This document shows, piece after piece, positions 5,685 through 49,090 of a stretch of DNA of 64,000 nucleotides. Source of the DNA: Candidatus Lloydbacteria bacterium (lineage in GTDB: Bacteria; Patescibacteriota; Minisyncoccia; Phycocordibacterales; UBA6899); contig JAYSTI010000015.1 of NCBI GenBank assembly GCA_043719805.1, positions 4,881 to 68,880 on the forward strand, in the 5' to 3' direction. Under the pieces are notes generated by a model. It had not been told where the DNA came from. It saw nothing but the letters and a program-made list of their open reading frames with translations, and did not search any database. Every line of letters starts with the position of its first letter. Within the stretch, counting starts at the first letter, position 1. Both the position numbers and the translations under genes were made by a program.

Positions 5685-5740
5685 TTGTGCTTGGAGTGCA
5701 AGCGAATTTCCCAACAACCTGAAAAAGTTGTATTATTGGG

Positions 5741-5746
5741 TGTATA
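5741..5746 (+). promoter_or_regulatory. TATAAT -10-like box 12 bp upstream of the proposed start of the InlB-repeat protein gene
   Basis: The sequence reads ggtgTATAATaaaaaagctATG. The short leader is consistent with a leaderless or short-leader transcript. Confidence 0.3.
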
Positions 5747-5757
5747 ATAAAAAAGCT

Positions 5758-22932: not shown

Positions 22933-24207
22933 ATGACGGAAAAGAGGAATCCGCGGGCATTTTGGTATACGATGCTGTTTTCTTTTTTGCTCTCACTCAT
23001 GTTTGCACCGCTCGCGCATGCTGAGGATTTCTCAGTAATCCCTGCAGTCATCGACGGGAAGGGGAAGTCGCGTGAGATTCTTCGCTACACGCTGACCGTC
23101 GAGAACACCACAAAGCACATGCTCCAGCTCTATCCGTGGGTCGCCGACCTCGACGCCGCTTCCGGTGCGACGGCGGGAAGCGATCTTGGCGGCGGGTCAC
23201 CGGGAGAATCGCGTATGGCCTCACCTTCCCGCTGGATAGAGATTAGTCGAGCAATGATTGACCTGCTTCCCGGTGAGAAGAAGGATATTCCGGTTCTGAT
23301 ACAAATAGACATGAATGCGGAGCCGGGAATTTACCATGCACTCATTCACGTGAGTGACGGCAGCAATCGCGCCGTTGCAGAGGCGAATGTCGCAGGTACG
23401 CGCGACACCGCGGTCAACATCGAAGTGCTTGATGACATTCACGAGCGGCTCGAGTTGAATACGTTTATGCCTGATAAGAATTTTTTCAGCGGCACCAACG
23501 CGTCATTCAATTATCGCATTGAAAACATCGGCAATCGCGGAGTTACTCCAACGGGCAAAATTCATATTTTTGACCGTAGAGGTGAAGAGGTTGCCGCCAT
23601 CGACGCAAATCAGGACAATCGTCGCCTTGAGCCGAACCAGAAAGAACTGCTCGCCTCAGTGTGGTCGGCAAACGGACATTTTGGACGGTACAAAGCGATG
23701 CTCGAGCTTGATTATGGCGCGCGTGGCGTTGTGCAAGATACGGTGTATTTTTGGATTATGCCTTGGACGAAACTGCTCGGCATGTTTGGGACCATCTGTT
23801 TGATGGGAGTTATCTTGGCGCTTGTGGCGCAGTCGTGGGGAATGGCGCAGCGCGGACCGCGACGACGTTTCGCTTTCTCTTTTTTGAGATCATCGCGTGG
23901 TCCCCGTGAGCTTGAGTTCTCGCCGGACGAAGAGGACAAAGATGCGCGCGAGGCATACGTCGACGGCATCACGGAGGTCGCAATTCCTCCACGCACCCGT
24001 ACGCGCTACAGCGTGGCCGAGCGAGAGCCGCGAACTCACGCACGCGAGACTCATGTGATTCATGACGAGTTGCACGCACTCGCTAGTGCAGGGAGGGGCG
24101 CGACGCATTCAGATGGTGCGCACACTGAGGGGCACAAGGTGCATCTGACCAAGAAAGAAAAATACATCGACCCGAATCATATCGTCACATTGGGAAGGAG
24201 GAAGTGA
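22933..24207 (+). CDS. Paralogue family A, copy 1. It is a cell-surface beta-sandwich protein with a C-terminal TM anchor and a basic cytoplasmic tail, with a DUF916/DUF3324-like (CscA-like) architecture.
   Basis: It has a signal peptide, a beta-rich domain of about 250 aa, a TM helix (LLGMFGTICLMGVILALVA) and a charged tail. It is paralogous to 24230..25615 and 36240..37316. Confidence 0.55.
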   Translation: MTEKRNPRAFWYTMLFSFLLSLMFAPLAHAEDFSVIPAVIDGKGKSREILRYTLTVENTTKHMLQLYPWVADLDAASGATAGSDLGGGSPGESRMASPSRWIEISRAMIDLLPGEKKDIPVLIQIDMNAEPGIYHALIHVSDGSNRAVAEANVAGTRDTAVNIEVLDDIHERLELNTFMPDKNFFSGTNASFNYRIENIGNRGVTPTGKIHIFDRRGEEVAAIDANQDNRRLEPNQKELLASVWSANGHFGRYKAMLELDYGARGVVQDTVYFWIMPWTKLLGMFGTICLMGVILALVAQSWGMAQRGPRRRFAFSFLRSSRGPRELEFSPDEEDKDAREAYVDGITEVAIPPRTRTRYSVAEREPRTHARETHVIHDELHALASAGRGATHSDGAHTEGHKVHLTKKEKYIDPNHIVTLGRRK

Positions 24208-24229
24208 TGCGTATCGCGGCATTTATACT

Positions 24230-25615
24230 ATGCAAAAAATGAAACAGTACACATTGTCTCCGGTTAGTTCGCTCACGCGACCCTGCTCCATTGCCATTTC
24301 CGCAATACTGTTTTTCGCACTGTTCCTACTTGTTCCCTCCGCCGCCTTCGCACAAGTCGATAAGAGTAGTCTCTCCATCACCATCGCCCCTCCGCTCTAT
24401 CAGCTTACTATTGCACCGGGCACATTGTGGAAGAGCACACTGCGCATCGTGAATACAAATCCCTATCCGCTCTCCATTCATACGGAGGTCGCAGATTTTC
24501 ATCCGAATGGGGAAACGGGAAATGCGGTGTTTGATAATTTGTCTCAGGGTAGTCCGGAAGACACTCGCCTCATGTCGGGGTGGATAATACTTCCCCCAGG
24601 TGATATCACGGTGCCACCTGACCAATCGTATGAGATTCCATTTTCAATCATGGTCCCACCGAATGCGGACCCGGGAGGGCACTACGGCGCCATTATGGTG
24701 GGCACACTTCCGCCGGACAACGTAGGTGGTAGCGGCGCGAGTGTCGGTACGATGCTCTCTTCGCTTATCTTCTTGCGCGTTCCCGGAGAGGTAATCGAGG
24801 AAGGGCTCATTCGTGACTTTTATGCCGCGAAGGATGTGGTGCCCTCGCCACTGCAGTCGTTTGTGTTGCGTTTCGAGAATAAAGGGAATGTGCATCTCGT
24901 TCCTCAGGGGCAAATCGTCATCACGAATATGTGGGGGAAGACGCGCGGGACAATAAACGTAAATGCAAAAAGTTCATTTGGTAACGTACTCCCCGGTTCA
25001 ACGAGAAAATTCGCCTTCGAATGGAAAGGGGAGGAGTCTATTTTTGATATCGGTCGCTACAAAGTGGAGGCGGTGCTTTCATATGGTGACCAAAACAAGC
25101 AGAGCGCCGTGCGCATAACGCACTTCTGGATTATTCCGTGGTTCAAAGTTTCCGCCACGCTCTTTACCGTCTTCTTTCTTGCGTGGTTCTTTACGTGGTC
25201 TATCAAGCGCTATATTCGCAATGCACTTCGGTTGGAGCGACAACGAATTTTTGGAGATGAGGGAGCGGAGCACAAAACAGCACATCGCGACACCAAGGCC
25301 ACACATCATCCGGCTCCTCATCACGAAGCTATGCCTCCGCGACTTACTCTCGACGTCCTGCGGCGCCCGCTTGTCGTTGGTGCAACGGAGCTGTCTCGCG
25401 GCAGATCAATGCCCGCTCACGTGGCGCACGCGAAGGAGAAGCACGCAAAACGGACCAAACACTTCTCATACATAGAGTGGGCAAAACGCTACCGCCTCTT
25501 CATTCTCTTCGTCCTAGTATTTGTCATGGGCTGTGCATTTATTTCTTGGTACTTCGTCGAAGTCTTCAAGGAGGAGCGCACTTACAACGTCACCGAAATC
25601 CGCCCGAAGGGGTAG
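24230..25615 (+). CDS. Paralogue family A, copy 2 (DUF916/DUF3324-like surface protein)
   Basis: It has the same signal, beta-domain, TM (WFKVSATLFTVFFLAWFFTW) and tail architecture. It shares the motifs SxxxxPPxYxL, G(Q/R)YKA(M/V) and F(W/I)I(M/I)PW with copy 1. Confidence 0.6.
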   Translation: MQKMKQYTLSPVSSLTRPCSIAISAILFFALFLLVPSAAFAQVDKSSLSITIAPPLYQLTIAPGTLWKSTLRIVNTNPYPLSIHTEVADFHPNGETGNAVFDNLSQGSPEDTRLMSGWIILPPGDITVPPDQSYEIPFSIMVPPNADPGGHYGAIMVGTLPPDNVGGSGASVGTMLSSLIFLRVPGEVIEEGLIRDFYAAKDVVPSPLQSFVLRFENKGNVHLVPQGQIVITNMWGKTRGTINVNAKSSFGNVLPGSTRKFAFEWKGEESIFDIGRYKVEAVLSYGDQNKQSAVRITHFWIIPWFKVSATLFTVFFLAWFFTWSIKRYIRNALRLERQRIFGDEGAEHKTAHRDTKATHHPAPHHEAMPPRLTLDVLRRPLVVGATELSRGRSMPAHVAHAKEKHAKRTKHFSYIEWAKRYRLFILFVLVFVMGCAFISWYFVEVFKEERTYNVTEIRPKG

Positions 25616-25716
25616 TGGGCATTAATCTCTACTTATATATAGACATTTCATTCTGTCTTGATAGAGTAGAGTGATGAAATTACAATTGAGTCCGTGGTTG
25701 AAATACAATCAATAAG

Positions 25717-26292
25717 ATGACACTTGTATCAAAAAAATATGTCGTTATGTGTGTTGGGTACACGCATTCAGGTAAAACAACGTTCGCAAAAAAAATTGCA
25801 AAAACCGTTAGCAATCTCGTGCTGATAGATACAGACGAAATTGCAAGCTTCGTTATGGAGCGTTACCCGGCAGCCGTCCTCTCTTTGCACAACAAACAAA
25901 AAAGAGATTTCAGAAACCCGAACCTCAAATTCCTTCTCTGGAAAGGCGTATTGAAATTCTGCTTAGATGCAGGCGTTAACGTCATGTTGTCCAATGGAAA
26001 TCTTGGGAAAGATATCCGCTCACTGATTTGCCGTACAGCAAAAGCAAATGGGTACAAGGTTGTTACGGTTTATTTTAATATTCCGACCGAGACTGTTGCG
26101 AGCAGGATTAAGTCTTCAAAGAAAAGCACGAAGATGTTTGTTCATTCGAAAAAATGGCAAGTGGTTTTAGATAAGCAGAAAGGATATGCAGAGCTTCCGC
26201 CTTCCAAAAAAGACACCACGTATTTTGAAATTCAAAAAAACGCAGACTATGGTTTGGTTGAGACAGGCATAGTACGGCTTCTATGCAAGTAG
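25717..26292 (+). CDS. P-loop kinase (AAA_33 / zeta-toxin-like ATP-binding protein)
   Basis: The Walker A motif GYTHSGKTT is present. The ORF is about 190 aa, similar in size to small nucleotide or antibiotic kinases. Confidence 0.6.
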   Translation: MTLVSKKYVVMCVGYTHSGKTTFAKKIAKTVSNLVLIDTDEIASFVMERYPAAVLSLHNKQKRDFRNPNLKFLLWKGVLKFCLDAGVNVMLSNGNLGKDIRSLICRTAKANGYKVVTVYFNIPTETVASRIKSSKKSTKMFVHSKKWQVVLDKQKGYAELPPSKKDTTYFEIQKNADYGLVETGIVRLLCK

Positions 26293-26505
26293 AGCGCGAG
26301 GGTTCGATGTCGCGTATGCCACTGTTTTGAGGCGATACATGTTTCAAGTGGAAGGTGACGAGGGAAGTTCCCTTGTTGAGCGTGGATAAAACTTCCTGGA
26401 GCCTCCACAGACGAACGGCTTGGTCCGCACGGTCCTGCGGGCGGCATTCGTCGAGGATAGTTTTGCCCGCCGCTGGAAGCGGGCAAATGAGCTCCAAGAT
26501 GTTTT

Positions 26506-26620
26506 ATCCGAGCTGAAAGTTACCCGCAGTTTGTCCACCATTTTCCACAGGCAGAATATAATTAATACTAGGTTCTTTCTATGTATTCTCGGAAATCCAC
26601 ACTCTTCGGTGTGGGTGCGG
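26506..26620 (+). promoter_or_regulatory. Promoter/leader module, copy 1. It contains DnaA-box-like 9-mers, TTTTCCACA, TATAAT and a conserved leader CTATGTATTCTCGGAAATCCACACTC.
   Basis: TTTGTCCAC is at 26530..26538. TTTTCCACA is at 26541..26549. TATAAT is at 26557..26562. The leader matches copy 2. Confidence 0.45.
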
Positions 26621-26754
26621 TGGGTGGTGCTGTCGTGACGCCAGTACTCGCCCTTGTCTATGCTGTGGGTCTTGGAACCCTCTGCGCCATCTCACTTTTG
26701 GCATCACTCTTCGCTCGCTATTTTCGTAGTAGAAACCAAGAAAATCTATTTATT

Positions 26755-28032
26755 TTACGTATGCACATGCTCGGCTTCAACGGAACATATAGAGCAGGTG
26801 TCACAAATACTTGCGCCATTCCTGAACGCTTTCCATGCTTTAGATAATGGAAGAATTCTCATAAACATGCAGAGATCAACGAGGCGACGGATACCCCAGC
26901 CAACTCTTCCATAGAGGGAAAAATTTCCGATAAGTACACCAGCCCACTTGGGGCCTGCGGGGATGGCATTAATGGGCATTGTGGGTGCATAAATTGTATA
27001 GATTGGAAGTAAGCCATTTCCCAGAATCGTCTGTGCGACGACCTCACCCGCATGCCTGCCGTCATAAAGTGCCGTCTGTGCCCATCCGGAAAATTGCGTT
27101 GCCGCTCCGTCGCCAGCAACAAATATCGCAGGGTAATCTTTGATTCGTAGATGTGCATCGACTTCTACCTTTCCGCGTTTGTCGATAGGAAGTTTCCAAT
27201 TCTCATAGCTTGCATTTGCGCGAACTCCCGCAGTCCAGATCACGGTCCGTGCTTTTATTTTCATGTCTTTTAAGAATACCTCTTCGCATTCTTCACGCTC
27301 AATCGTGCGATTAAGAAAAATGTTGATGCCCAATCCGCGCAAGTGATGCTCGATGCGGTCAGTAAATGATTTCGGAAGAGCGGGGAGAATTTTAGGAGCA
27401 CCCTCGATAAGATCAACGGATACCAGCCCAGGGTCAATGCCGTATGCGCTTGCGAGTTCTCGCGCGTAGACAATGAGTTGTCCTGCCATTTCGACCCCCG
27501 TAGCACCAGCACCGATGACGACAAAGTGTGCGTCGCAGATCTGCTCGACCTTGTTGGTAAAATCTATCTTGCAGGTGAGGAGTGCTTCAGTGATGTGTTG
27601 CTTCAGCTTGAGTGCCTCGGGGATGGACTTCATGCCGTATGAGTACTCCCTGAGTCCGGGAATGCCAAAGTAATTGGTCTCAGATCCAAGTCCCAGAATA
27701 AGATAATCGTAGCGATAACGAGAACCAGAAGAACCCGTGAGCGTTTTCTCCTCTCCGTGGAGTAGGGTGATGCGGTCTTCGACCACCTCAACATGTTTTC
27801 CTTGGAATATTTCTCGGAGTGGAATGCAAACTTCCAGTGGGGAGCTTCCCGTCACTAAGCGATAGAGGGCTGCATGATATTCAAAATGTGGCTTATCTGC
27901 GACAAGTATGATTTTTACATTTGGAAGGCGTTTTTTTTCTAGCGCTAGTGCGGCTGCAACTCCAGCAAATCCACCCCCCACGATAACAATGTGCGTTTCC
28001 ATCATGCCGGGGATTATAACATAGCAAGACAT
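26755..28032 (-). CDS. ndh: Type II NADH dehydrogenase (NDH-2), a FAD-dependent pyridine nucleotide-disulfide oxidoreductase
   Basis: The FAD-binding Rossmann motif is HIVIVGGGFAGV. A second GxGxxG (VVIGAGATGVE) is present. The real start is probably the Met at 28002 (METHIV). Confidence 0.8.
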   Translation of the reverse strand: MSCYVIIPGMMETHIVIVGGGFAGVAAALALEKKRLPNVKIILVADKPHFEYHAALYRLVTGSSPLEVCIPLREIFQGKHVEVVEDRITLLHGEEKTLTGSSGSRYRYDYLILGLGSETNYFGIPGLREYSYGMKSIPEALKLKQHITEALLTCKIDFTNKVEQICDAHFVVIGAGATGVEMAGQLIVYARELASAYGIDPGLVSVDLIEGAPKILPALPKSFTDRIEHHLRGLGINIFLNRTIEREECEEVFLKDMKIKARTVIWTAGVRANASYENWKLPIDKRGKVEVDAHLRIKDYPAIFVAGDGAATQFSGWAQTALYDGRHAGEVVAQTILGNGLLPIYTIYAPTMPINAIPAGPKWAGVLIGNFSLYGRVGWGIRRLVDLCMFMRILPLSKAWKAFRNGASICDTCSICSVEAEHVHT

Positions 28033-28360
28033 TCATTTTTACGGCAGTGCTTTCTTTGCAAAAAATACGGCATAGTCATCGTGCTGTCGATGTTTCCTAT
28101 TCATGCATTTGCTGTGATTGCTTATCTCCTCAGTCTTGCGGAGGTTATGTGGAAAAGGTAAGTAGTGTGGTCTTCGCCTTTTGGCGAAGCAGGCCCGTCG
28201 AGCGACCTAAAATTTCATCGAGTCATCGAGCGCTGAAATTTGGAAGTACTCGCAGTGGTACAGAATCACAATTTTTCGCAGGAAAAATTGATGATGAGTT
28301 TTTCGTCTCACGAAGCGAGGGCGACAAGGTTGCTCTGAAAAGACTTGCTGCCCGAGTGGA

Positions 28361-28475
28361 AAGTTATCCACAGTTATCCACAGTTTGTCCACCCTTTTTC
28401 CACAGTCGTTGTATAATAAATGCTAGGTGTATTCTATGTATTCTCGGATATCCACACTCCGAGGTCAAAAGTACA
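28361..28475 (+). promoter_or_regulatory. Promoter/leader module, copy 2. It has tandem perfect DnaA boxes TTATCCACA x2 plus TTTGTCCAC, TTTTCCACA and TATAAT, followed by a conserved leader.
   Basis: TTATCCACA is at 28364..28372 and 28374..28382. TATAAT is at 28412..28417. The leader is ctatgtattctcggatatccacactccgag. Confidence 0.5.
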
Positions 28476-28785
28476 GGTGAGTCACCATCCCAAATTATTG
28501 CATTGAAAAACGCTCCAAAAGTTTTTTAATGATTCGGCTTTTCAAGTGGTACTCGCCCGCGAAAAGTCAGAATTGAGCATTGTTTTATTGGAATGTCGGT
28601 TTGCCATTATTCATCCCACCGAGTTGCGAAACTCTTGGATAATGATCTGCGGACTCTGTGCGCTGACGGGGGAAAACGAGGGGCATGAAGCGTGTGCCAC
28701 AAAGGGTTTCTCAGTGTTGGAGCCAAAATTTGTGAATCGTTAGACATTGGTTGTGTCAACTTGGAATTTATCCCACTAGTTCTTT

Positions 28786-29994
28786 ATGAGCTATCTCCAC
28801 ATGTTTCGATATCTTGCCCGATTGAAAGGGCTCGGAATCGTACTCCTGACCGCTACTATCGGTTGGGCAGTCGGTATCCCGTTTCTTATTAATACTGGTT
28901 CGGCAGCGCAACTCACATTTGTCTCCGCCACTGCGTCTTCGTCTGCACCGTCCGTCTCGACGAGTTATATGGTACGATTTACGACAACTGGTACACTCGG
29001 CAGTGGCGTTGCGGGATTTGCTTCGTCAACGAGAATTACTTTCGATCCAGTGGGTGATTCGTTCGACGTCACTTCGCTCGCTACCACTACTGATGTATTT
29101 ATTTCAGGTGGCGTTACTCAGGTGGCAAATCTTGCTAGCTGTACGGGGCCAACAACTGATGAGGTTTACGTCTCGCAGATTGGTCGTTCGCAGCCTGCGG
29201 ACTTTGTCGAGTTTACCACTTGCATGGGAGACACGGTTCCCGCAGGTGCAAAGATCGTAAATCTTCCAAACGCACACGTCACCAATCCTGGAGCGACAGG
29301 TTCCTATGTCGTTCGCATCGGCGCGGGGTTCACCAACGCCACTACGACCGGAATTGCTGACTCCGGAGATACTCGCGTGGCGATCATTAGTTCAGTCACT
29401 ATGACGGCATCTGTCGATAGCAATCTGACCTTCGCAATCACCGGTGTTGCATCGAGCTCCATTGTGAACGGTGACACAACTTCAACATCAACGACTCCAT
29501 CTGTCACGGCAATTGGGTTCGGCACGCTCTCTGTCGGGACTTCGTCTATTGCTGCGCAGGACATTTCCGTTGCAACGAACGCCGCAAATGGCTTTAGTGT
29601 CACCGTCACGCAGAGCCAGGACCTCACTGCTTCGAATGGTGCGACAATCAATGCATTCAGGGATGGGAATGCGGCGCCCGCAGGTGTATTGGCTGCCCCC
29701 GCAGCTTGGGGTGCTGCCCCGTTGGGTACTATCGGTAACGCGAATTCTTACGGTCACATGGGAATTACCTCTGAGGATGCAACGTTGCCGGCCGATGACT
29801 TCGGCTCCGCATTCTACGGAGGACTCACGTCGACCTCAACACGCACAGTGCTCTATCACACAGGCCCTGCCGATGGAACGACCGCAGATATTGGAAGGAC
29901 GCGAGTTGGATACCGCGTGCAAATCACGTCACTTCAGGAGGCGGGATCTGATTATACGAATCAGATCAGGTACGTTTGTACGCCGATCTTCTAG
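28786..29994 (+). CDS. Paralogue family B, copy 1. It is a secreted or membrane-anchored beta-rich protein with a conserved post-TM segment (QLxxVSATASSSAPSVST...RFT) and an invariant C-terminus (...RYVCTPIF).
   Basis: A 402-aa ORF with an N-terminal TM. It is paralogous to 30035..31201 and 34673..35839. Confidence 0.65.
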   Translation: MSYLHMFRYLARLKGLGIVLLTATIGWAVGIPFLINTGSAAQLTFVSATASSSAPSVSTSYMVRFTTTGTLGSGVAGFASSTRITFDPVGDSFDVTSLATTTDVFISGGVTQVANLASCTGPTTDEVYVSQIGRSQPADFVEFTTCMGDTVPAGAKIVNLPNAHVTNPGATGSYVVRIGAGFTNATTTGIADSGDTRVAIISSVTMTASVDSNLTFAITGVASSSIVNGDTTSTSTTPSVTAIGFGTLSVGTSSIAAQDISVATNAANGFSVTVTQSQDLTASNGATINAFRDGNAAPAGVLAAPAAWGAAPLGTIGNANSYGHMGITSEDATLPADDFGSAFYGGLTSTSTRTVLYHTGPADGTTADIGRTRVGYRVQITSLQEAGSDYTNQIRYVCTPIF

Positions 29995-30034
29995 GATGCT
30001 GCCCACCTAACTTATCTAGCAAACAAAAATACCA

Positions 30035-31201
30035 GTGAATTATTACAACCCACTCATGCAATTTGTTCGTTCGAGAACATTGAGCGCCGCAATCATCATT
30101 GCGATGGTTGGTTTGGTGTTTCCGGCATTTCAACTCTTCACTCCAACCTACGCAGCACAGCTAAGCCTCGTAAGTGCCACGGCGTCTACGTCAGCCCCGT
30201 CGGTTTCGACGAACTACATGGTGAGGTTTACGAACATAAACACAATAGGCCAGGCAGTGACGGCATCAACATCGAGGATAACGTTTGACCCTCTTGGGAA
30301 CTCATTCGATTTTTCTTCACTCGTCGTCGGCGATATTACAGTCTCGGGTCCTCAGGTGACGACAAGAACCGGAATAGGTGGCTGCACGGGGCCGACAACA
30401 AATGAAATGTATCCGTCATCAATTGGCGTAAATCCCGACTATATTGAGCTTTCTACTTGCGTTGGCGACACTGTTCCCGCAGGTGCCATTTTGGTTAATA
30501 TGGCAAATGCTCATGTCGTGAATCCTGCAGCCGTTGGCTCGTATATTGTGCGCATTAACGGCACAATGACCGATTCCGCCGACACCCGTGTCGCAACCAT
30601 AAACTCCGTGACAATGACAGGAATCGTCGGCACCAATCTAACTTTCACGGTTGCCACTGTCGCCTCGAGTTCACTGGTCAACGGGGATACAACCTCAACG
30701 TCGAGTTCGGCGACGGCAATTGGGTTTGGCACACTTTCGGTTGGTACCTCGTCTATCGCCGCACAGGACATCACTGTTCAGACAAATGCATTAAATGGTT
30801 TCAGTGTAACGGTAACCGAAAACCAAGACCTCACTTCTTCCAACGGTGCGACTATCAACGCGTTTAGAGACGGCAATCCAGCACCAGGTGGCATCCTCGC
30901 TGCCCCCGCAGCTTGGGGTGCCGCCCCGTTGGGTACGATTGGTAATGCGAACTCCTACGGTCACATGGGGGTTACCTCTGAGGATTCAACGTTACCGGCC
31001 GATGACTTCGGCTCCGCATTCTACGGAGGACTCACCTCGACCTCAACGCGCACGGTGCTCTATCACACTGGTCCCGCAGACGCATCAACTGCAAACATCG
31101 GAGCTACTCGTGTGGGATTCCGTGTGCAGATTACCTCACTCCAGGAAGCCGGAACTGACTACACGAATCAGATCCGCTACGTCTGCACCCCGATTTTTTA
31201 G
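30035..31201 (+). CDS. Paralogue family B, copy 2
   Basis: A 388-aa ORF. The motifs AQLSLVSATASTSAPSVSTNYMVRFTN and the terminal ...QIRYVCTPIF are present. The 3' ~350 nt are about 85% identical in nucleotide sequence to copy 1. Confidence 0.65.
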   Translation: MNYYNPLMQFVRSRTLSAAIIIAMVGLVFPAFQLFTPTYAAQLSLVSATASTSAPSVSTNYMVRFTNINTIGQAVTASTSRITFDPLGNSFDFSSLVVGDITVSGPQVTTRTGIGGCTGPTTNEMYPSSIGVNPDYIELSTCVGDTVPAGAILVNMANAHVVNPAAVGSYIVRINGTMTDSADTRVATINSVTMTGIVGTNLTFTVATVASSSLVNGDTTSTSSSATAIGFGTLSVGTSSIAAQDITVQTNALNGFSVTVTENQDLTSSNGATINAFRDGNPAPGGILAAPAAWGAAPLGTIGNANSYGHMGVTSEDSTLPADDFGSAFYGGLTSTSTRTVLYHTGPADASTANIGATRVGFRVQITSLQEAGTDYTNQIRYVCTPIF

Positions 31202-31233
31202 GGTTACATTTTTAAACTCCGAATAGGTGACAA

Positions 31234-31262
31234 AAAAGCAAGCTCAAGCTGAGCTTGCTTTT
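31234..31262 (+). terminator. Rho-independent terminator after family-B copy 2
   Basis: The hairpin is aaaagcaagctca-agc-tgagcttgctttt. Confidence 0.6.
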
Positions 31263-31384
31263 ACGTAAAAAAATATATAGTGACTTATCCACTCGATATT
31301 AACAGCCTTATGAACAAATCTAAGGCGCAAATTTCTGGGGGGGGTGCTAGTGTGGGATAAGTTTGTTAAACTATTATTTGTGAT

Positions 31385-34108: not shown

Positions 34109-34130
34109 TCTGAGGCTAATCTGAATCAAC

Positions 34131-34165
34131 AAAGTCTCCGCGTAAGCGCGGAGACTTTGTTTTCT
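34131..34165 (+). terminator. Rho-independent terminator
   Basis: The hairpin is aaagtctccgcg-taa-gcgcggagacttt, followed by gtttt. Confidence 0.65.
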
Positions 34166-34420
34166 GTTGGCCATCGCGTGCAAATAACCTCACCCTAGGA
34201 GACAGGAACATATTACGCGAACAAGATCAGCTACGTTTTACCCCGTTTTTTTGATTTTTTCGACCGAAAATGATCAGTTAAAAACTATTTTACTATTCAA
34301 TGGTATAGTTGGGTATTTTTTTGCCCCTATGCTTATCCACTTTTGTGGACAACATTGTCGAATATAATGATATTTTCACGATTGCGCGATTTCCGAGGAG
34401 AAATCGCAACAAAATATGAG

Positions 34421-34500
34421 TTATCCACAGTTATCCACCGTAAGCGCACCACTTTTCCACAGGAGCGGTATAATTACTTGTAGGTGAGTTCTCTGTTTAT
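34421..34500 (+). promoter_or_regulatory. Promoter module, copy 3, with TTATCCACA/TTATCCACC tandem boxes, TTTTCCACA and TATAAT, upstream of family-B copy 3
   Basis: TTATCCACA is at 34421..34429. TTATCCACC is at 34431..34439. TTTTCCACA is at 34453..34461. TATAAT is at 34469..34474. Confidence 0.5.
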
Positions 34501-34672
34501 GGAAACAGAGAACAACACAAAAACATCCCATTCGCGAATAACAGAAGCGTTCTGAATATGGACTTCCCACAGGGACATATGCAACATCAGAACATTAGTG
34601 CTTCACTTTCTCCCGCTGCAAATTCTCCAAACTTGCAAGCAGTTATTCGTTATCAAAATAAAAGTTCACACT

Positions 34673-35839
34673 ATGGACTACACAAACGCATTTCGTTCTT
34701 TAATTCGCATGAGGTGGCTCGCCACGACGCTTGTCGTCGCGACCTTCTCTTGGGCACTCGGCCTACCATTTCTTTTTAATACGGCATCGGCATCTCAGCT
34801 CTTGCTGGTGAGTGCAACTGCATCATCATCTGCACCACTGGTCTCTGGAAATTACATTGTGCGATATACGAACATAAACACAATTGGTCAGGCCGTGACG
34901 GCATCAACAACAAGGATCACCTTTGACCCTGGGAGTAATTCATTCGATTTTTCGACGCTCGTCGTCGGCGATGTAACCATCTCAGGTCCTCAGGTGACGG
35001 GGAGAGCTAATATCGGTGCTTGCTCTGCACCGACCACAAATGAAATGTACCCCTCATCAATTGGCGTGAATCCAGACTATATTGAACTTACTACTTGTGT
35101 TGGTGATACCGTTGTCGCCGGTGCGCTTACTGTGAGTGTCGTAAATTCACATATAACAAATCCATCAGGTGTTGGTTCCTATGTGGTGCGTGTCGGCGGC
35201 ACAATGGCGGATTCCGCAGACACACGCGTTGCCATCATTAGCTCAGTGACCATGACCGCAATTGTTGATACCAACCTTACCTTTACAATTGCGGGTGTTG
35301 CCTCTAGTTCGCTCGTGAACGGCGACACAACCTCGACTTCGACCTCCGCAATAGCTATCGGGTTTGGCATCATCTCCGTTGGTACGTCGTCCATTGCGGC
35401 GCAGGACATTACCGTTGCTACAAATGCCTTCAATGGTTTTTCGGTGACCATCACTCAAAACCAAGACCTTCTTTCCGCGAATGGTGCAAACATCAACGCG
35501 TTTAAGGACGGCAATCCCGCACCAGGTGGTGTTCTCGATGCCCCCGTAGCCTGGACGACGCCACTAGGAACACTCGGAGTGAATAATGCATATGGTCACA
35601 TGGGTGTGACATCAGAGGATTCATCATTACCGACAGGTGACGCATTTGGCACTTCACTCTACGGTGGACTCACGTCTACGTCGACACGCACGGTCCTCTA
35701 TCACACTGCGGTGGCAGACGGTACGACTGCGCACATTGGTGCAACCCGCGTGGGATACCGCGTGCAGGTCTCGGCACTTCAGGAAGCAGCCGTCGACTAC
35801 AACAACGTTATCACCTACGTTTGTACCCCAATCTTTTAA
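34673..35839 (+). CDS. Paralogue family B, copy 3
   Basis: The start is at MDYTNAFRS, inside track ORF 34598..35839. The motifs SQLLLVSATASSSAPLVSGNYIVRYTN and the terminal ...TYVCTPIF are present. Confidence 0.65.
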   Translation: MDYTNAFRSLIRMRWLATTLVVATFSWALGLPFLFNTASASQLLLVSATASSSAPLVSGNYIVRYTNINTIGQAVTASTTRITFDPGSNSFDFSTLVVGDVTISGPQVTGRANIGACSAPTTNEMYPSSIGVNPDYIELTTCVGDTVVAGALTVSVVNSHITNPSGVGSYVVRVGGTMADSADTRVAIISSVTMTAIVDTNLTFTIAGVASSSLVNGDTTSTSTSAIAIGFGIISVGTSSIAAQDITVATNAFNGFSVTITQNQDLLSANGANINAFKDGNPAPGGVLDAPVAWTTPLGTLGVNNAYGHMGVTSEDSSLPTGDAFGTSLYGGLTSTSTRTVLYHTAVADGTTAHIGATRVGYRVQVSALQEAAVDYNNVITYVCTPIF

Positions 35840-36239
35840 AAGCACAATAGAAGCCGCCTCGCCTTGCCGTGGGGCCACTGTGATTTGGTCATACATTAGA
35901 ATATGTCTTGCCTTCTACAATCCCCATGCGTCGTATCTGCGTTCATCTGATACGCTCCACGGCAATGCAATCTAGTGTGCGTATCTTGGGTGTTCGGGCT
36001 ACCCGGAAGTGCTCGAATGCAGTCCATAGTGAAAAATGCACCAATCAATTTGATTGGTGCATTTTTTTGTCGTTTTACTGCACCGTTGCCTTTCCAAATG
36101 TGATTTATAAGATCACACTTTCCACATAGCCAATGATTCGGTACAATGGTAACTAGTCTCACTGAGGTGAGTTGTGGAAAGGAAAGAATTTATACATAGC
36201 TTATACGCCTCGCCGTGCGGGAGAGGTCCAAAATTTTTT

Positions 36240-37316
36240 ATGTCGAGATCCAATATGATTTTAAAGAGTGATTTGGTCCTTGCCGCGTTTGTCGGCTCTG
36301 CGATGCTCATCGCACCACTTTCGGCACTCGCGCAAAATAAAGTGAGTTTCAATCTTTCCCCTACGACTATTGAAGATAAAGTTGAGCCGGGCACGGAGCA
36401 CTCGTACTCGGTGCGTATCGAAAATCGTGGCGATCAGGGGACAACTCTTTATCCTGTCGCACGCAACATTTCAACAATCGGAGCCGACCATCAGCCCGTC
36501 TACATGGAAGGAGCTGACGTAAATGCGACGGAGCTTGCATCATGGATAACATACGATGAGTCAGTGCTTGATGTTCCTGCAGGCAAGGGGGCAGTGCTCC
36601 ATTTCACCATCAAATTTCCCGCCGATGCACGTCCCGGTTCGCACCTCGCGGGTTTATTTTTGACACAGAAACCGCCCGACAACCTCAAGGAAGGTTCTGC
36701 GGTGGGTTTCGATATTGGTGCAATACTCCATTTTCAAATGAAAGGGGATATCGTTGAGGACACACGCATGAGGGGATTCCGTACCGACAAGCTTATCTAT
36801 GGTTCTGCGAACGTCGTCTTTAGTGTGGAGGCGGAGAATAAGGGCAACACGCTTTCGCGCCCCCAAGGACTGATTGATATTACGGACATGTTCGGAAAGA
36901 AAGTCGAGTCACTTCCAGTGAATGAGACAGCTTACGTCATCTCACCGAACGCCACCGGAAAGTACGACGTCAACTGGAGTCCGGACGGGTTTGTCATCGG
37001 TCACTTTGAAGCGGTTGTGGCGCTCGCGGTACCTCTCGTTGACGGCGGAAATCAAACCATTTCATCGGTGACTTCGTTCTGGATACTCCCAATGAATATC
37101 ATTGGCCCGGTCTTGGGGGGTCTCCTCACGTTCATTCTCGTACTCTATTTCATGATTCGCCTCTACGTTAAACGACAGTTAGCGGGAATGGTGGGTGGAC
37201 GCGGAAGCTCGGCTGCACGTGGCGCACAGGGCATTTCACGACTTGCTGCGGTGGCCATCGGACTCTTGTTTGCGATTATTGTGGGTCTACTCATCCTCTT
37301 CTTCTACTTTGGCTAG
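36240..37316 (+). CDS. Paralogue family A, copy 3 (DUF916/DUF3324-like anchored surface protein)
   Basis: The signal is MSRSNMILKSDLVLAAFVGSAMLIAPLSALA. It has a beta-domain, a TM (IIGPVLGGLLTFILVLYFMI) and a second C-terminal TM. Confidence 0.55.
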   Translation: MSRSNMILKSDLVLAAFVGSAMLIAPLSALAQNKVSFNLSPTTIEDKVEPGTEHSYSVRIENRGDQGTTLYPVARNISTIGADHQPVYMEGADVNATELASWITYDESVLDVPAGKGAVLHFTIKFPADARPGSHLAGLFLTQKPPDNLKEGSAVGFDIGAILHFQMKGDIVEDTRMRGFRTDKLIYGSANVVFSVEAENKGNTLSRPQGLIDITDMFGKKVESLPVNETAYVISPNATGKYDVNWSPDGFVIGHFEAVVALAVPLVDGGNQTISSVTSFWILPMNIIGPVLGGLLTFILVLYFMIRLYVKRQLAGMVGGRGSSAARGAQGISRLAAVAIGLLFAIIVGLLILFFYFG

Positions 37317-37321
37317 CGAAG

Positions 37322-37354
37322 AAAATAGAGAAAGTTCACTTTCTCTATTTTTCT
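37322..37354 (+). terminator. Rho-independent terminator after family-A copy 3
   Basis: The hairpin is aaaatagagaaag-ttcac-tttctctattttt, with 13 perfect base pairs. Confidence 0.65.
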
Positions 37355-37640
37355 GAGCGACGCCAAAGCAAATTCATCATATCTGGATTGTGCCAGATAT
37401 GATGAATTTGTCATTGGTTAGCGAGAAATACTTGAGTGTGAGCACTCAGTCATTTCTGAGCGACGCCAAAGCAAATACGCAGTTGCGGGGCTTTGCCCGC
37501 TGCTGCGTATTTGTCATTGGCTAAAATGCGAAATTGCACCCCAATTATGAAAGTTTTTACGACGTGATGCCAAAGCAAATTCACCGCAGCGACGCGGTGA
37601 ATTTGCTATTTGGTATCATACGAAATTTAATCCGTCTGCT
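37355..37640 (+). repeat. Array of at least 3 hairpins with conserved flanks (GCCAAAGCAAAT...ATTTGYC) and divergent inner stems showing compensatory variation
   Basis: Unit 1 stem: caaattcatcatatctgg / ccagatatgatgaatttg. Unit 2 stem: caaatacgcagttgcgggg / gcccgctgctgcgtatttg. Unit 3 stem: gcaaattcaccgc / gcggtgaatttgc. An extra hairpin, acttgagtg..cactcagt, lies between units. Confidence 0.6.
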
Positions 37641-37681
37641 TTGCTGGAGGTTATTCTCAGCTCACTTGGTATAATCGTTCC

Positions 37682-38647
37682 ATGGAACAAGCACTAAAGA
37701 AATACTGGAAAGAAAAAAAGCCTACGAGTAATTGTGATATCTTGGTTGTGACGCTTTTGGCTCCCGGACAAAGTACGAATCATCTCAATTACAAGGTGGC
37801 CACAACAAAGGGCACATACGTAGCAAGGGTGAGCAATCCAAAGGAGGTCCTCCCACACGGAGATCTCGCGGATGAATTTGCGATCTTGAAACTCGCAGAA
37901 AGATACAACGTGGGACCACGTGCGATTTGTATAGACAGTAAACACTTTGATTTCACGCTGTTGGTTGAGGAGTATCTCGACGGTGTTCCTTATTCGGAGC
38001 TGAGTGAAGCCGATGCAAAGGAGTTTCAGGGCGCCATTGAATTGTTGCTCAAGGTGAGTAGTATGGAGATTTCTAAAGAGCGGTTTCCGCATAAGTCTAC
38101 TTATCTGACGTATGTGACGAACTTCACCGTATGGCATGAGAGACTTCTGGAGATTTCCCGGGCTGTTGGAGAAGAGAGTGCGCTCGTTCGGCAATTCGGG
38201 CAAATTGCAAAAGAAGCTGAAAACATTCTTCAAAAAAAAGAGCATCTTCTCGCGGGTGCGCCAAAGGAGTTCATTTATAATGACGTACATCCGGGGAATA
38301 TGTTTTGGATGCCTCTCGATCACAGCGCAAAATTCATTGACTGGCAGAAGGTGAGCCTTGGTGATCCGACTTTTATGGCCGCACTTTTCGCGAGACGATT
38401 TGGCTCTATTTGGAGGGAGGATAATGCACAATTTGCCACGAGGGTCATGAAAGCATGTGTGGACAAGAAGCAAGTACCAAATTTTAATGAATTGTTTCAT
38501 GCTCGACTTCTTGAGAGGGCAGTGTCGGACATGATTTGGGTCGTCTGGGCTGATGTGAAAAGAGGGAATGAGGCGAATGTTTCTCCCGCAGAAGCGAACC
38601 CATATTATCTTGAGGCGAAGTCGTTGATGTCCACATTTTCGATGTGA
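37682..38647 (+). CDS. Aminoglycoside-phosphotransferase / choline-kinase-family kinase (APH fold)
   Basis: The catalytic loop is YNDVHPGNMFW (HxxN). The divalent-cation-binding motif is FIDWQ. Confidence 0.7.
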   Translation: MEQALKKYWKEKKPTSNCDILVVTLLAPGQSTNHLNYKVATTKGTYVARVSNPKEVLPHGDLADEFAILKLAERYNVGPRAICIDSKHFDFTLLVEEYLDGVPYSELSEADAKEFQGAIELLLKVSSMEISKERFPHKSTYLTYVTNFTVWHERLLEISRAVGEESALVRQFGQIAKEAENILQKKEHLLAGAPKEFIYNDVHPGNMFWMPLDHSAKFIDWQKVSLGDPTFMAALFARRFGSIWREDNAQFATRVMKACVDKKQVPNFNELFHARLLERAVSDMIWVVWADVKRGNEANVSPAEANPYYLEAKSLMSTFSM

Positions 38648-38749
38648 GTTCCATGTGGTTGCACTCCCAGTCATTAAAGAGATTTCCCGACGCTGAGGGT
38701 GCGTGAAAGGTCTTTACCTAAGGGCAATTTAGCCATAAAATGAGGCCAT

Positions 38750-39184
38750 ATGGCCATTTGGAAGGATAAGGTGGGCAAAAAGGCAACAATTCAATATGCA
38801 GCGATACTTATCGTGGGCTTTGCCGTGCTTACGCAGCTCACTTTTGACGGATTCGCGCCGATAAAAAATATTGCACTTCAGGCGACGGAAAATATTGCCG
38901 GAGTAATTGGTATTGCGGGATCAGTTGCACCTAATGAATATAATGACCTCGCCGCACAGATTGACCAGAAAAATGAAGAGCTCACGCTTCGCGAGCAAGC
39001 ATTGGCGGTCCGAGAGGAAGCGCTTTTCTCGGGGAATGACCGCATTACCCTCGACGTACTTTTCGGTATCACGGGGCTCCTTTTACTGCTCATTTCGCTC
39101 AATTTTTACTACGATTGGAGGCGCGGTCCTTCGGTTGATTATGTTGGACCGTCTCATCGGGACGAAATGACAACTCGACTGTAA
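38750..39184 (+). CDS. Hypothetical membrane protein with a coiled-coil segment
   Basis: A 144-aa ORF with two hydrophobic helices flanking a helical charged region. Confidence 0.4.
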   Translation: MAIWKDKVGKKATIQYAAILIVGFAVLTQLTFDGFAPIKNIALQATENIAGVIGIAGSVAPNEYNDLAAQIDQKNEELTLREQALAVREEALFSGNDRITLDVLFGITGLLLLLISLNFYYDWRRGPSVDYVGPSHRDEMTTRL

Positions 39185-39192
39185 CAATTACA

Positions 39193-40134
39193 ATGCACGA
39201 ACGAACAAACATTACAGCCACGCCGGTCAGGTTGACCATCCGGAGAGAAGGTCGTGCGCAATACGCACCCCCGCTCCCGCAACCACCACCGAAGAAAAAG
39301 CGCGGAGGAGGTTTTTGGAAAGGGTCGCTCATCGTCATCGGGGCGATACTGCTCACTACGCTTGCGAGTAAGGCGAGCGATTCCCTTAAGATAAGTGACG
39401 CGCTTTTGCTCGCCGGAACAGGGAAATCGACTGAGGTGTTACGTTGCCCAAAGGAGATGGTGTATGTCCCCACATCTCTGGGTGGATTCTGTATTGACCG
39501 TTATGAGGTGACGACGAGTGTGACCTGCCCGCGCACGAGTCCGTCGAGTGAAATGCAGACAAGGGAGAATCTTGCGGTTGCGACCTGTGTCCCCGAGTCG
39601 ACGAAGGGGATGTATCCGTGGGTAAACGCATCATACGCTCAGGCGATGGCGCTCTGTGCGCGAGTGGGGAAAAGGCTACCTTCTCCCGGAGAGTGGTATC
39701 GTGCAGCGCTCGGTACTCCCGATACGATAGGCGACGTGAAGGCTGGGTGTGTCCTTGGTCGCTCTGGTATGAGTCAGGGAGAAAAAGCCGGAGTGCACGA
39801 AGAGTGTGTTTCCTCGTTTGGTTCCTACGATATGGTGGGAAACGTCTGGGAATGGGTAGATGCGGATGTTGTGGACGGGGTCTACGGTGACCGCACGCTT
39901 CCGCCTGAGGGGTACATCACCGAAGCAGATGCGGACGGAGTCCCTTCGCAAACAGCCACGACTTCTTCGCCGGTATTTGGCGAAGACTATTTCTACGCTG
40001 ATTCGACCGGAGTGCGCGGAATGTTTCGCGGAGGGTTTTGGAATTTGACCGACAGGGCGGGAATTTTTACCATCAACGCCACCATCCAGACCTCGTTCGC
40101 CGGCTCTGCCGTCGGGTTTCGTTGTGTAAAATAA
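39193..40134 (+). CDS. Membrane-anchored protein of the formylglycine-generating-enzyme family (FGE-sulfatase / SUMF1-like domain)
   Basis: The motifs FCIDRYEVT, GKRLPSPGEWYRAALG, MVGNVWEWV and FRGGFW are present. There is an N-terminal TM. Confidence 0.65.
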   Translation: MHERTNITATPVRLTIRREGRAQYAPPLPQPPPKKKRGGGFWKGSLIVIGAILLTTLASKASDSLKISDALLLAGTGKSTEVLRCPKEMVYVPTSLGGFCIDRYEVTTSVTCPRTSPSSEMQTRENLAVATCVPESTKGMYPWVNASYAQAMALCARVGKRLPSPGEWYRAALGTPDTIGDVKAGCVLGRSGMSQGEKAGVHEECVSSFGSYDMVGNVWEWVDADVVDGVYGDRTLPPEGYITEADADGVPSQTATTSSPVFGEDYFYADSTGVRGMFRGGFWNLTDRAGIFTINATIQTSFAGSAVGFRCVK

Positions 40135-40171
40135 GCAGCAAATTTGTAGAGCGCGAAAACAGAACATATTC

Positions 40172-41920
40172 ATGACACAACAGAGAGTACATCATTCAGC
40201 GATACTGCAAAAAAAGGACCCGGCACCGATGGCCGGCATTCTTCTTTTTTTAACCTTGCTTATTCCGTTGTCATTTGTGCATGCTGGTACGATTTCGTTT
40301 GTGAGTGACACCGTCTCGACATCGGCCCCGAGTGCAACGACGACGTCGCACACAATTCAGTTCACCGTGGCGACGGCAATACCCCCAGGCGGGCATATCG
40401 TGGTGACCCCCGAGGGCTTCACCATTCCCGTTGCACTCAGTTTTGCGGACGTTGACCTTGCTGTCGCGACATTGCCGGGCGCGTTTACTAATCGCATACT
40501 TGCGGCTGTGCCCAGTGTGACTGATGTCGGGGTGACGGTTACATCAGGACTAACGGGGCAGATACTGTTTACACTTAGTTCGGGTGCAGGAATATCTGCA
40601 GGAGACACCGTAAAAATTTCCATAGGGGATGTTGCCACATTTGGCGGTGTGGGGACGCAATTTATTGAGAGCCCTGGTACTGTCGGTTCGCGCCACGTGC
40701 GCTTTTTGACGACGAATGCCGTCAATGCGAATCTTGATTTCGGGTCCACGATTGTGGCCATCATCGCTCCGGTGGGAATCACCGCTTCGTTGCCGGTATT
40801 TGAGCCAACTCGTACGAATGCACTTCCTTCTGGGCTCTTCCCTGGGAGTACGCGGAACATCTGGGTGTCGCTTAACACCGATATTCCCGCAACGTGTCGC
40901 TACGCTACCTCAAGTGGCGTGCTCTATACAAACATGCTGGGAAGCACCGCCTTTACCGCTGCAAATGGTGGCTTGCTGCACTATCGCAACGAGGCGGTCG
41001 CCACAAATACTGTGTATAGTTTTTATGTGCGCTGTCAGACGCCTTCATTGATAGTGAACTCCAGCGACCTACTTATCCGTTTTGAAATAGGAGTAGAGGC
41101 GGGTGCGGCAACCGCGACGCCACCGCTTCCGCCTCCACCACCTCCGGGCGGGGGAGGCATTTCGGGGCCGGGCGGAGGAGGAGGGCTTTACTTGAACGGT
41201 GGAGACGTAACCCTCGAGGGTAGGGCGGCACCGGGCGCGGCAATGGTTTTCCTTAAGGACGGCGTGATTGCGCGCGAGACGACCGTGTCTCAAGTAGGAG
41301 ATTTTTCAGAAAAGTTCACGAACCTCCAGCGCGGTACCTATACATGGGGTGTATATATCCGAGATACGAACGGGAGGCTTTCCTCGACATATTCGTCGAC
41401 TATTTACCTCATCGCAAGAACAAACAACATCATTGCACCTGTATACATTTCTCCGACGATAATCGCTGCGACGACAACGGTTGGCCTTGGGGATAAGATA
41501 AAATTGAGCGGATACGCAATACCGCTAACTCCGGTTCAGGTGATAATGAATGCACAAGGAAATGCACTTTCGGGAAAGATAGTCACCGGCACGACGACGG
41601 CAAATGGGAACGGCTCGTGGAGTTTGGAACTATCCTCCGATGGATTAGCGAAGGGGACATACGAGGCGAAGGCGCTCTCAAAACTTCTGAATAAAGATCA
41701 GAGTCTCTTGAGTCCAATACTCTACATCGGTATGGGCGTTTCTCCGACTCCCGATTTTACGAATCGTTCAGACTTGAATAAAGATAAAAAGGTGAATCTC
41801 ATCGACTTTTCGATATTGTTGTTTAATTGGAAAAGTTCGGACCCGGTGTCGGACATCAATCAGGACGGGACGGTGAATTTGGTGGACTTTTCTATCATGC
41901 TCGCCAATTGGACCGGGTAA
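40172..41920 (+). CDS. Secreted protein with a C-terminal type-I dockerin module. Its N-terminal post-signal segment is shared with family B.
   Basis: Two Ca-binding dockerin repeats are present: DLNKDKKVNLIDFSILLFNW and DINQDGTVNLVDFSIMLANW. The N-terminal segment TISFVSDTVSTSAPSATTTSHTIQFT follows the signal peptide. Confidence 0.65.
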   Translation: MTQQRVHHSAILQKKDPAPMAGILLFLTLLIPLSFVHAGTISFVSDTVSTSAPSATTTSHTIQFTVATAIPPGGHIVVTPEGFTIPVALSFADVDLAVATLPGAFTNRILAAVPSVTDVGVTVTSGLTGQILFTLSSGAGISAGDTVKISIGDVATFGGVGTQFIESPGTVGSRHVRFLTTNAVNANLDFGSTIVAIIAPVGITASLPVFEPTRTNALPSGLFPGSTRNIWVSLNTDIPATCRYATSSGVLYTNMLGSTAFTAANGGLLHYRNEAVATNTVYSFYVRCQTPSLIVNSSDLLIRFEIGVEAGAATATPPLPPPPPPGGGGISGPGGGGGLYLNGGDVTLEGRAAPGAAMVFLKDGVIARETTVSQVGDFSEKFTNLQRGTYTWGVYIRDTNGRLSSTYSSTIYLIARTNNIIAPVYISPTIIAATTTVGLGDKIKLSGYAIPLTPVQVIMNAQGNALSGKIVTGTTTANGNGSWSLELSSDGLAKGTYEAKALSKLLNKDQSLLSPILYIGMGVSPTPDFTNRSDLNKDKKVNLIDFSILLFNWKSSDPVSDINQDGTVNLVDFSIMLANWTG

Positions 41921-48840: not shown

Positions 48841-49090
48841 GTATGCTCCTTGTGTGTGGTCAATGAATCTATGAAAAATCTACATAAGAAATGGCTTTTT
48901 GTCAATTTTTGAATAATAAGGACGCGCGCGCGAGGGTAACCTGTGGAAAACTTTTGCAATGAAGCAAATGTGGTGCGGTTGAGCCATTGTGCCGTACCCG
49001 ATTTTGCGTAGAAATGAGGCCATTTTTAGGCATTTTTTTGGTAAAATAACGTGCATAACCGATCCTGTTGGAGGACTGGTATTTTGTTTC

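Follow-up and report, generated by a model that had tools for sequence, protein, structure and literature searches.

What does a tight run of genes for exported, beta-rich proteins build on the surface of an ultra-small bacterium? The question is raised by a stretch of 64,000 nucleotides (nt) from Candidatus Lloydbacteria (contig JAYSTI010000015.1, positions 4,881 to 68,880; hereafter the window), in which a preliminary description had delimited a surface-protein island at 22933-41920, composed of three family A and three family B genes and likened to the WxL/Csc clusters. In those clusters, CscA is the WxL-interacting protein (WxLIP, carrying DUF916 and DUF3324), CscB is the small WxL protein, CscC is the large WxL protein, and CscD is an LPXTG protein. 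They are known from Lactobacillales, Listeria, and Bacillus.

Our analysis indicates that a conserved set of about 10 genes in ultra-small Parcubacteria probably builds a cell-surface protein complex. We favor, at a little better than an even chance, the reading that this cluster corresponds, in Patescibacteria (Parcubacteria/Paceibacterota), to the WxL/Csc clusters and serves non-covalent surface display on a single-membrane, peptidoglycan-bearing cell. The open reading frames (ORFs) of the island were all present at their coordinates on the plus strand, but its bounds had to be widened, since they omitted the gene for a protein of 1773 amino acids (aa) upstream and a cohesin gene downstream. 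With Bn and Bc denoting the two domains of the B proteins, the cluster genes are as follows.

17521-22842, +: large surface protein, 1773 aa, Bc-terminated (blastp to the B C-terminus, Bc profile)
22933-24207, +: A1, WxLIP-like membrane anchor (A profile, E 3.5e-80)
24230-25615, +: A2, WxLIP-like membrane anchor (A profile, E 1.2e-103; PF06030, E 0.038)
28786-29994, +: B1, signal peptide, Bn, and Bc (blastp, profiles, consensus alignment)
30035-31201, +: B2, signal peptide, Bn, and Bc; the protein chosen for modeling
34673-35839, +: B3, signal peptide, Bn, and Bc (blastp, profiles)
36240-37316, +: A3, WxLIP-like membrane anchor (PF06030, E 0.002; hhalign, 97.8%)
38750-39184, +: small protein of 144 aa with two transmembrane (TM) helices, always after A3 (orthologs in loci L007 and L009)
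39193-40134, +: FGE-sulfatase-like protein, membrane-anchored, optional member (PF03781, E 2e-13)
40172-41920, +: Bn-dockerin protein (Bn profile, Dockerin_1)
45716-46228, +: HSP20 small heat-shock protein, uncertain member (Pfam HSP20, E 6e-13)
46258-47757, +: cohesin protein, 499 aa (Pfam Cohesin; TM scan)

Every cluster product bears an export signal. No credible LPXTG signal was found in the window ORFs, and on that ground an LPXTG/sortase component equivalent to CscD was ruled out.

The family A proteins are the likely membrane anchors of the cluster. A1, A2, and A3 are distant paralogs (23-27% identical; blastp E 1e-16 to 6e-28), and a hydropathy scan gave each of them a signal peptide, a beta-rich ectodomain of ~250 aa, a TM helix within ~281-325, and a cytoplasmic tail. 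The published WxLIP layout is two immunoglobulin (Ig)-like domains followed by a TM helix (PMC10599100), and the helix follows the two domains in all three A proteins. In A1, the TM helix that comes after the two Ig-like domains spans residues 281-299 and leads into a cytoplasmic tail of ~125 aa. The helix of A2 lies at ~300-325, with a second one in the tail (425-443), and A3 has helices at residues 287-305 and 335-353. Using WxLIP and WxL comparison sequences drawn from real WxL clusters on Enterococcus plasmids, we aligned family A by hhalign with six Enterococcus WxLIPs at a probability of 97.8% (E 9.6e-13; 241 columns, both Ig domains), and the controls in this comparison reached at most 0.3%. 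Against PDB sequences, the best matches of the family A profile were to EfmWxLIP1 (9i25_C and 9i1y_A; E 8.4e-5), with the next match at 0.2. PF06030 was matched by 35 of 49 family A members (best E 1.1e-8); the window A proteins match it weakly (E 0.002-0.04, 18.5 bits), under the Pfam cut-off of 27.3. Judged from these comparisons, family A is a true homolog of the Firmicute WxL-interacting protein (WxLIP/CscA, DUF916), and both the CscA-like layout and the broader Csc/WxL likeness that had been proposed for the island were borne out.

A minimal WxL cluster comprises two WxL proteins, one small and one large, together with a DUF916 protein (PMC9772566). Here, the small B proteins and the 1773-aa protein share the Bc domain. 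B proteins consist of a cleavable signal peptide, a Bn domain of ~150 aa, and a Bc domain of ~195 aa that always ends the protein; in B2, these span residues 1-40, ~41-188, and ~190-388 (nt 30602-31198). The 1773-aa protein has a signal-like N-terminus, two tandem repeats of ~577 aa (residues ~61-635 and ~646-1220; 67% identical, 389 of 577), further beta domains, and a Bc domain in its last ~180 aa (about nt 22315-22839), ending in YLVVPTF. It matched the B C-terminus by blastp (E 1e-13) and the Bc profile up to the last residue (E 1.1e-30). Both the large protein and B are secreted without an anchor of the membrane, lipid, or sortase kind, and Bc forms their exact end. We assign the 1773-aa protein to the “large WxL” (CscC) role, which had no occupant in the earlier list of components. 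Its orthologs are the first cluster gene in L007, L009, and most GTDB loci. In many genomes this first gene encodes only ~440-460 aa, which match the last ~350 aa of the 1773-aa protein.

B1, B2, and B3 are close paralogs (64-70% identical by blastp), and the “3+3” symmetry of the preliminary description holds only in part. A1 is nearer to its L007 and L009 orthologs than to its own paralogs, and because every A protein has its nearest match in the ortholog at the same position, A1 to A3 represent three ancient orthologous groups kept in a fixed order. The B genes arose by a recent triplication, and other genomes have 1-3 copies. In the closest relative, L011 (a Candidatus Lloydbacteria assembly, 69% identical), the three B genes are contiguous.

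A TM scan of each B protein gave one N-terminal hydrophobic segment, a conserved AxA-type site, and then a conserved mature N-terminus. Because the AxA-type site directly precedes that N-terminus, we read the segment as probably a cleaved signal peptide and not as the membrane anchor first described. Across 60 homologs at 27-72% identity, the B consensus starts with AAxLTxxSDTLSDSxPxVxxxHTIxFTT and ends with DYTxTLTYVATPxF-COOH. The B tail is always [LI]-x-Y-[VI]-[AC]-T-P-x-[FY]-COOH, and that of the first-gene protein is Y-[IV]-x-x-P-x-F. Conservation of the C-terminal Y-V-C-T-P-I-F and of the post-signal segment thus reaches well past this genome. Neither is a new linear sorting signal; in the AlphaFold2 models they are the first strands of Bn and the last strand of Bc (predicted local distance difference test, pLDDT, >90). 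B2 modeled with the 60-sequence alignment gave a signal helix, Bn, and Bc at a pLDDT of 90.4, and Bc alone reached a pLDDT of 91.4 and a predicted template modeling score of 0.88. In these single-chain models both domains are complete folds, with the N-terminal segment built into Bn.

These models bear on a rival explanation, in which the cluster makes a fiber or pilus by donor-strand exchange. B would be the major subunit, with a strand (possibly the mature N-terminus) completing the Ig-like Bc of the next subunit, the large Bc protein would be the tip adhesin, the A proteins would act as PapD-like membrane-tethered chaperones or anchors, and the Bn-dockerin protein would tie the fiber base to the membrane cohesin. 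TLP-1 assembles through N-terminal donor-strand exchange (PMC11494351). The fixed Y-x-x-T-P-x-F-COOH end of Bc, which always closes the protein, is consistent with such a fiber, as are the multi-copy, acidic, charge-poor nature of B, a strong hairpin after B3, and the layout of the large protein as an adhesin with a C-terminal pilin-like domain. Unlike TLP-1 and the donor-strand pilins (TasA-like AbpA, Csu, and chaperone-usher), however, the B model has no free N-terminal donor strand evident, its domains being complete (pLDDT >90) and the N-terminal segment lying within Bn; TasA monomers are also self-complemented, so this is not decisive. The cluster proteins scanned gave no Pfam match to pilin (Fimbrial), TasA/Peptidase_M73, usher, PapD chaperone, or SipW. 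We consider the fiber possible but unlikely. Its more specific form, a new pilus class for single-membrane ultra-small bacteria with donor-strand complementation via Bc, no outer-membrane usher, the large protein at the tip, and A as chaperone or anchor, we hold to be slightly more doubtful still. For the TLP-1a/b fibrils (PDB 9ikk; CryoSeek, PMC11494351), identity amounts to only 14%, with no sequence-profile match. Their closest relatives are in Flavobacteriales, and the idea that TLP-1 fibrils come from the candidate phyla radiation (CPR, the older name for Patescibacteria) was not supported, the closest TLP-1 models being from Flavobacteriales.

B proteins have an isoelectric point (pI) of 4.35, ~9% charged residues, and 63-64% S/T/A/G/V/N. 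Being acidic, poor in charge, and multi-copy, they fit an abundant structural or adhesive subunit. The same composition and the gene duplication could speak for B as an S-layer or surface-coat protein, in which Bn forms a lattice or film and Bc plus A, together with the cohesin-dockerin pair, are attachment devices. CPR cells show S-layers by cryo-electron tomography, and we know of no S-layer protein identified for them. However, Pfam scans gave no match to SLH or any other S-layer family, and the large Bc-terminated protein is left unexplained. Bn is closest to BslA/YweA, a similarity at the level of the general Ig fold; against BslA/YweA and the YcnI/DUF1775 Ig-like domains, identity is 10-14% with no Pfam match. 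A coat protein is, in our view, improbable.

The B proteins of the window matched nothing in Pfam or NCBIfam, the 60 members scanned had no Pfam match, and the B profile found no match among PDB sequences. The Bc profile recovered 1,766 representative clusters (50% identity) at E <=1e-3 and 1,104 at <=1e-10, and in all of the best 150 representatives listed, Bc ends at the last residue of the protein. Bc members were without a Pfam match (63 scanned), and the four window copies were without an NCBIfam match. We conclude that Bc is a previously undescribed modular C-terminal domain family, possibly pilin-like. In other genomes it is fused behind unrelated modules, among them DDGVEILDISNPANP repeats and a lectin-like region (P0229, P0230, P0237, and P0313). 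Because its passengers vary, Bc behaves as a portable C-terminal module. A small form with only a signal and Bc was considered and dropped, as the 220-290-aa matches proved on inspection to be N-terminally truncated gene fragments.

To place the cluster among other genomes, one genome per GTDB species was scanned, which gave 262 loci. Domains were mapped over the best 80 of these, and counts were taken from those 43 that had 5 kb or more on each side. The conserved order, on one strand, is Bc-protein, A1, A2, B, A3, 2-TM protein, (FGE), Bn-dockerin, (HSP20), cohesin. It was seen in contigs with distant B homologs (35-45% identical), ortholog by ortholog in L007 and L009, and in most of the 80 species-level loci. 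Nearly all loci were labeled Patescibacteria, Paceibacterota, Lloydbacteria, Kaiserbacteria, Sungbacteria, or Minisyncoccia. In 37/43 loci there was one A gene or more, and in 29/43 there were three or more. A separate Bc-terminated protein was found in 28/43, the small 2-TM protein in 30/43, a dockerin protein in 37/43, a cohesin protein in 28/43, and an FGE-like protein in 15/43; B stood alone in 6/43. The co-occurrence of A and B, which the preliminary description had set as a test, therefore extends to other genomes and in a fixed order (A in 37/43 loci). The HSP20 gene adjoins the cohesin gene here and in L009, where the ortholog is 48% identical, and its place as a cluster member is uncertain.

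If the resemblance to Csc clusters were a coincidence, these genes could be independent neighboring secreted adhesins that form no physical complex. That Bc is not demonstrably a WxL domain and that the A-Bc interaction is a putative one would allow this. Against it, many species-level genomes retain both the gene order and the single strand at 35-70% protein identity, which makes functional coupling hard to avoid, and Firmicute WxLIP homologs are tightly tied to their partner proteins (PMC10599100). We regard independent adhesins as very improbable.

A second locus type has the order A, dockerin protein, B, cohesin, cohesin, cohesin+dockerin. It was found in the Kaiserbacteria-like loci L057, L061, L062, L064, L069, L076, L078, and L079, with one short A gene. 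Its ~255-aa protein matches both the cohesin-protein and the dockerin-protein models, and the arrangement looks like a small scaffoldin-style chain. A few records with typical B clusters (L022, L046, L051, L060, L083, and L090) are labeled Gammaproteobacteria, Pseudobdellovibrionaceae, or Azotimanducaceae, and many other records carry the generic label “Saccharibacteria.” The odd taxon labels are probably mis-binned or loosely labeled contigs and not occurrences outside Paceibacterota.

The dockerin protein begins with a signal peptide and Bn at ~37-207, continues with middle beta domains, a Pro/Gly linker, and Ig domains of the Big_6/Big_13 types, and closes with a C-terminal dockerin (Dockerin_1, 25.9 bits versus a Pfam gathering score of 22.9). 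It had been credited with the post-signal segment of family B, and the relation proved to be larger: because the Bn profile matched over all 147 profile positions (E 2.5e-12), the entire ~150-aa Bn domain is shared. The Bn+dockerin architecture was found in most loci. The cohesin protein, a membrane-anchored partner that the preliminary description had not listed, has a signal peptide, a cohesin domain at 52-162 (24.7 bits versus a gathering score of 24.1), a TM helix at 398-416, and a cytoplasmic tail. Its orthologs follow the dockerin gene in L007-L009, and the cohesin and dockerin orthologs bear precomputed PF00963 and PF00404 matches. The cohesin protein is presumed to be the membrane receptor for the dockerin protein.

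Taken together, the WxL/Csc counterpart that we favor would work as follows. Membrane-tethered A proteins would capture the C-terminal Bc domains, probably, by analogy with WxL proteins, by inserting a beta-strand or hairpin next to an edge strand. Beta-strand insertion was proposed earlier for WxLIP-WxL, and a WxLIP-WxL complex has been crystallized (9i25). The passengers, namely, the Bn of B and the repeats of the large protein, would thereby be held outside the wall. The cohesin protein would hold the dockerin protein, so that the Bn module is displayed by a second route. The displayed modules would probably mediate attachment to a host or surface or form a coat.

Several findings weigh against this counterpart reading. 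PF13731 was matched by 0/60 B members, even at E up to 10. hhalign comparisons of Bc with WxL, using 12 and then 132 sequences (the latter including 120 PF13731 proteins), gave a probability of 0.8-1.4% and E 0.04-0.07 (for the 132 sequences, 0.8% and 0.067), and hidden Markov model-versus-sequence searches between Bc and WxL were not significant in either direction. For the second A domain, none of the 49 family A members matched the DUF3324 models; the hhalign alignment runs unbroken over template columns 17-282 of 355 and spans both domains. The conserved N-terminal WxLIP strand NQIDKxxxYFDLK (PMC10599100) is absent, family A having an 11-residue gap opposite the template nQid....YfDL in hhalign. 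No A gene lies near B in 6/43 loci, and three conserved A paralogs with a cohesin-dockerin pair are without precedent in Csc clusters.

Bc occupies the WxL position; it may be a WxL domain that has diverged very far, or a replacement unrelated to WxL. WxLIP genes are expected beside at least two WxL-domain proteins; the cluster has no PF13731 protein, and Bc-domain proteins occupy those positions. Like WxL, Bc is always C-terminal and is found within a single cluster on both a small protein and a large one, beside WxLIP-like genes. It lacks the two Trp-x-Leu motifs, the equivalents being G-F-S-V and T-Y-V-A/C with no conserved Trp, so the absence of W-x-L motifs noted at first stands; family B likewise has no Pfam WxL match. 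No likeness of the Bc fold to the solved long WxL 9i25_A was detected. We know of no solved structure of a small WxL protein. The best hhalign path pairs Bc IGFG...ITVQTNAxNGFSVTV with WxL LDFG...VQVTDxRGxxGWxLxV, and at a relaxed threshold DYTxxLTYV pairs with YxTTLTWxL, the order being the same along both sequences. The paired segments are the two WxL motif strands described for WxL domains (PMC9772566). This register, an alignment result, is suggestive.

Compared with WxL/Csc clusters, the locus has a homologous membrane-anchored two-Ig-domain protein, small and large secreted proteins with one C-terminal beta domain of ~190 aa in common, signal peptides on all products, co-directional and tightly clustered genes, and an acidic small partner. 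It differs in that the common C-terminal domain lacks W-x-L, a PF13731 match, and any detected likeness to the solved long WxL; in having three conserved WxLIP paralogs versus one, an extra N-terminal domain on B, and no LPXTG protein; in the added cohesin-dockerin pair, small 2-TM protein, and often FGE-like protein; and in its host phylum, Patescibacteria, whereas more than 91% of WxL sequences are in Firmicutes (PMC9772566). The locus probably works like a WxL cluster and has the same anchor family, yet we do not class it as a member of the WxL cluster family, as the searches for the defining WxL domain were negative. As in cellulosome-type assemblies, a Pfam-positive C-terminal dockerin goes with a Pfam-positive cohesin in a membrane-anchored neighbor (both scoring just above the Pfam cut-offs), and the several cohesin and cohesin+dockerin proteins of the second locus type recall adaptor scaffoldins. 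Unlike cellulosomes, there are no glycoside hydrolases or carbohydrate-binding modules, and the cargo is Bn, not an enzyme. The literature searched held no paper linking WxL or DUF916 with Patescibacteria, in agreement with the earlier suggestion of an undescribed system.

The small 144-aa protein, with two TM helices by TM scan, contains no known domain. The FGE-like protein has a TM helix at residues 40-58. Its gene was present in 7/8 loci with a Cys B tail (Y-V-C-T-P-x-F) versus 14/42 loci with an Ala tail (Fisher p = 0.007; L011-L090), an association that may only reflect shared ancestry, as the Cys forms belong to one clade. The C-T-P of the B tail (e.g., 31178-31198) resembles the start of the FGE target CxPxR. 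We rejected modification of the Cys of YVCTPIF by FGE, since the Cys forms belong to one related clade, FGE is found beside Ala tails too, and the Arg of CxPxR is missing. Three further features lie among the cluster genes.

25717-28032: AAA_33 kinase (+) and NDH-2-type oxidoreductase (-), lineage-specific insertion (Pfam)
31385-34108, +: 907-aa secreted protein, beta-propeller/FN3/He_PIG/Big_9, insertion between B2 and B3 (Pfam)
37682-38647, +: APH-family kinase, lineage-specific insertion (Pfam)

L007, L009, and the GTDB loci lack the AAA_33 kinase and NDH-2 at the corresponding place; the propeller protein, the APH kinase, and a TldD/PmbA pair inserted in the window are likewise missing from other loci. 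Among the interspersed genes counted with the island at first, conservation is seen for the FGE gene but not for the P-loop kinase, NDH-2, propeller protein, or APH kinase genes. Three perfect hairpins with 14-17-bp stems and T-rich tails lie at 34128-34161, 36031-36067, and 37574-37607 (+), directly after the propeller gene, B3, and A3, respectively; that at 36031-36067 has a 17-bp stem and is terminator-like. This arrangement suggests that the cluster is transcribed as separate units.

Large surface proteins are unusually frequent throughout the window. A giant ORF with DUF2341 and Ig_Rha78A_N (48983-64000, +; at least 5,006 codons) follows just downstream of the cohesin gene and runs past the window end. 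Giants of 2,000-7,800 aa with DUF2341/Ig_Rha78A_N families flank B loci in L008, L009, and L010, and the upstream giant of L009 ends in a Bc domain. Directly upstream of the cluster, 15243-17524 (+) encodes a helix-turn-helix protein (164 aa) and then a 596-aa protein in which one TM helix and a linker rich in Pro, Ala, and Glu are combined with a beta-rich C-terminal part. The stop of the 596-aa ORF overlaps the start of the 1773-aa gene, and a homolog lies near B in L008 (E 5e-22). The 596-aa protein may belong to the cluster unit. Farther upstream, 5650-8412 (+) encodes a 920-aa secreted protein that combines Listeria-Bacteroides repeats with ASH/HYDIN-type Ig domains, and 12812-13651 (-) encodes a DDE transposase.

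Patescibacteria make up a large share of bacterial diversity, and a life attached to other cells is assumed for most of them. To our knowledge, almost nothing is known of their surface machinery apart from type IV pili. A ten-gene module in at least 262 species-level genomes is a concrete candidate for attachment or coat formation. The WxLIP family now reaches far outside Firmicutes and can evidently work with a partner domain without WxL motifs. Were the usher-less fiber true, Firmicute WxL-WxLIP would represent a reduced relative built on that principle, and environmental fibrils such as TLP-1 would find structural counterparts of this fiber type among CPR bacteria. Should A and Bc prove to interact by strand complementation, light would be shed on how WxL systems work in enterococci and Listeria.

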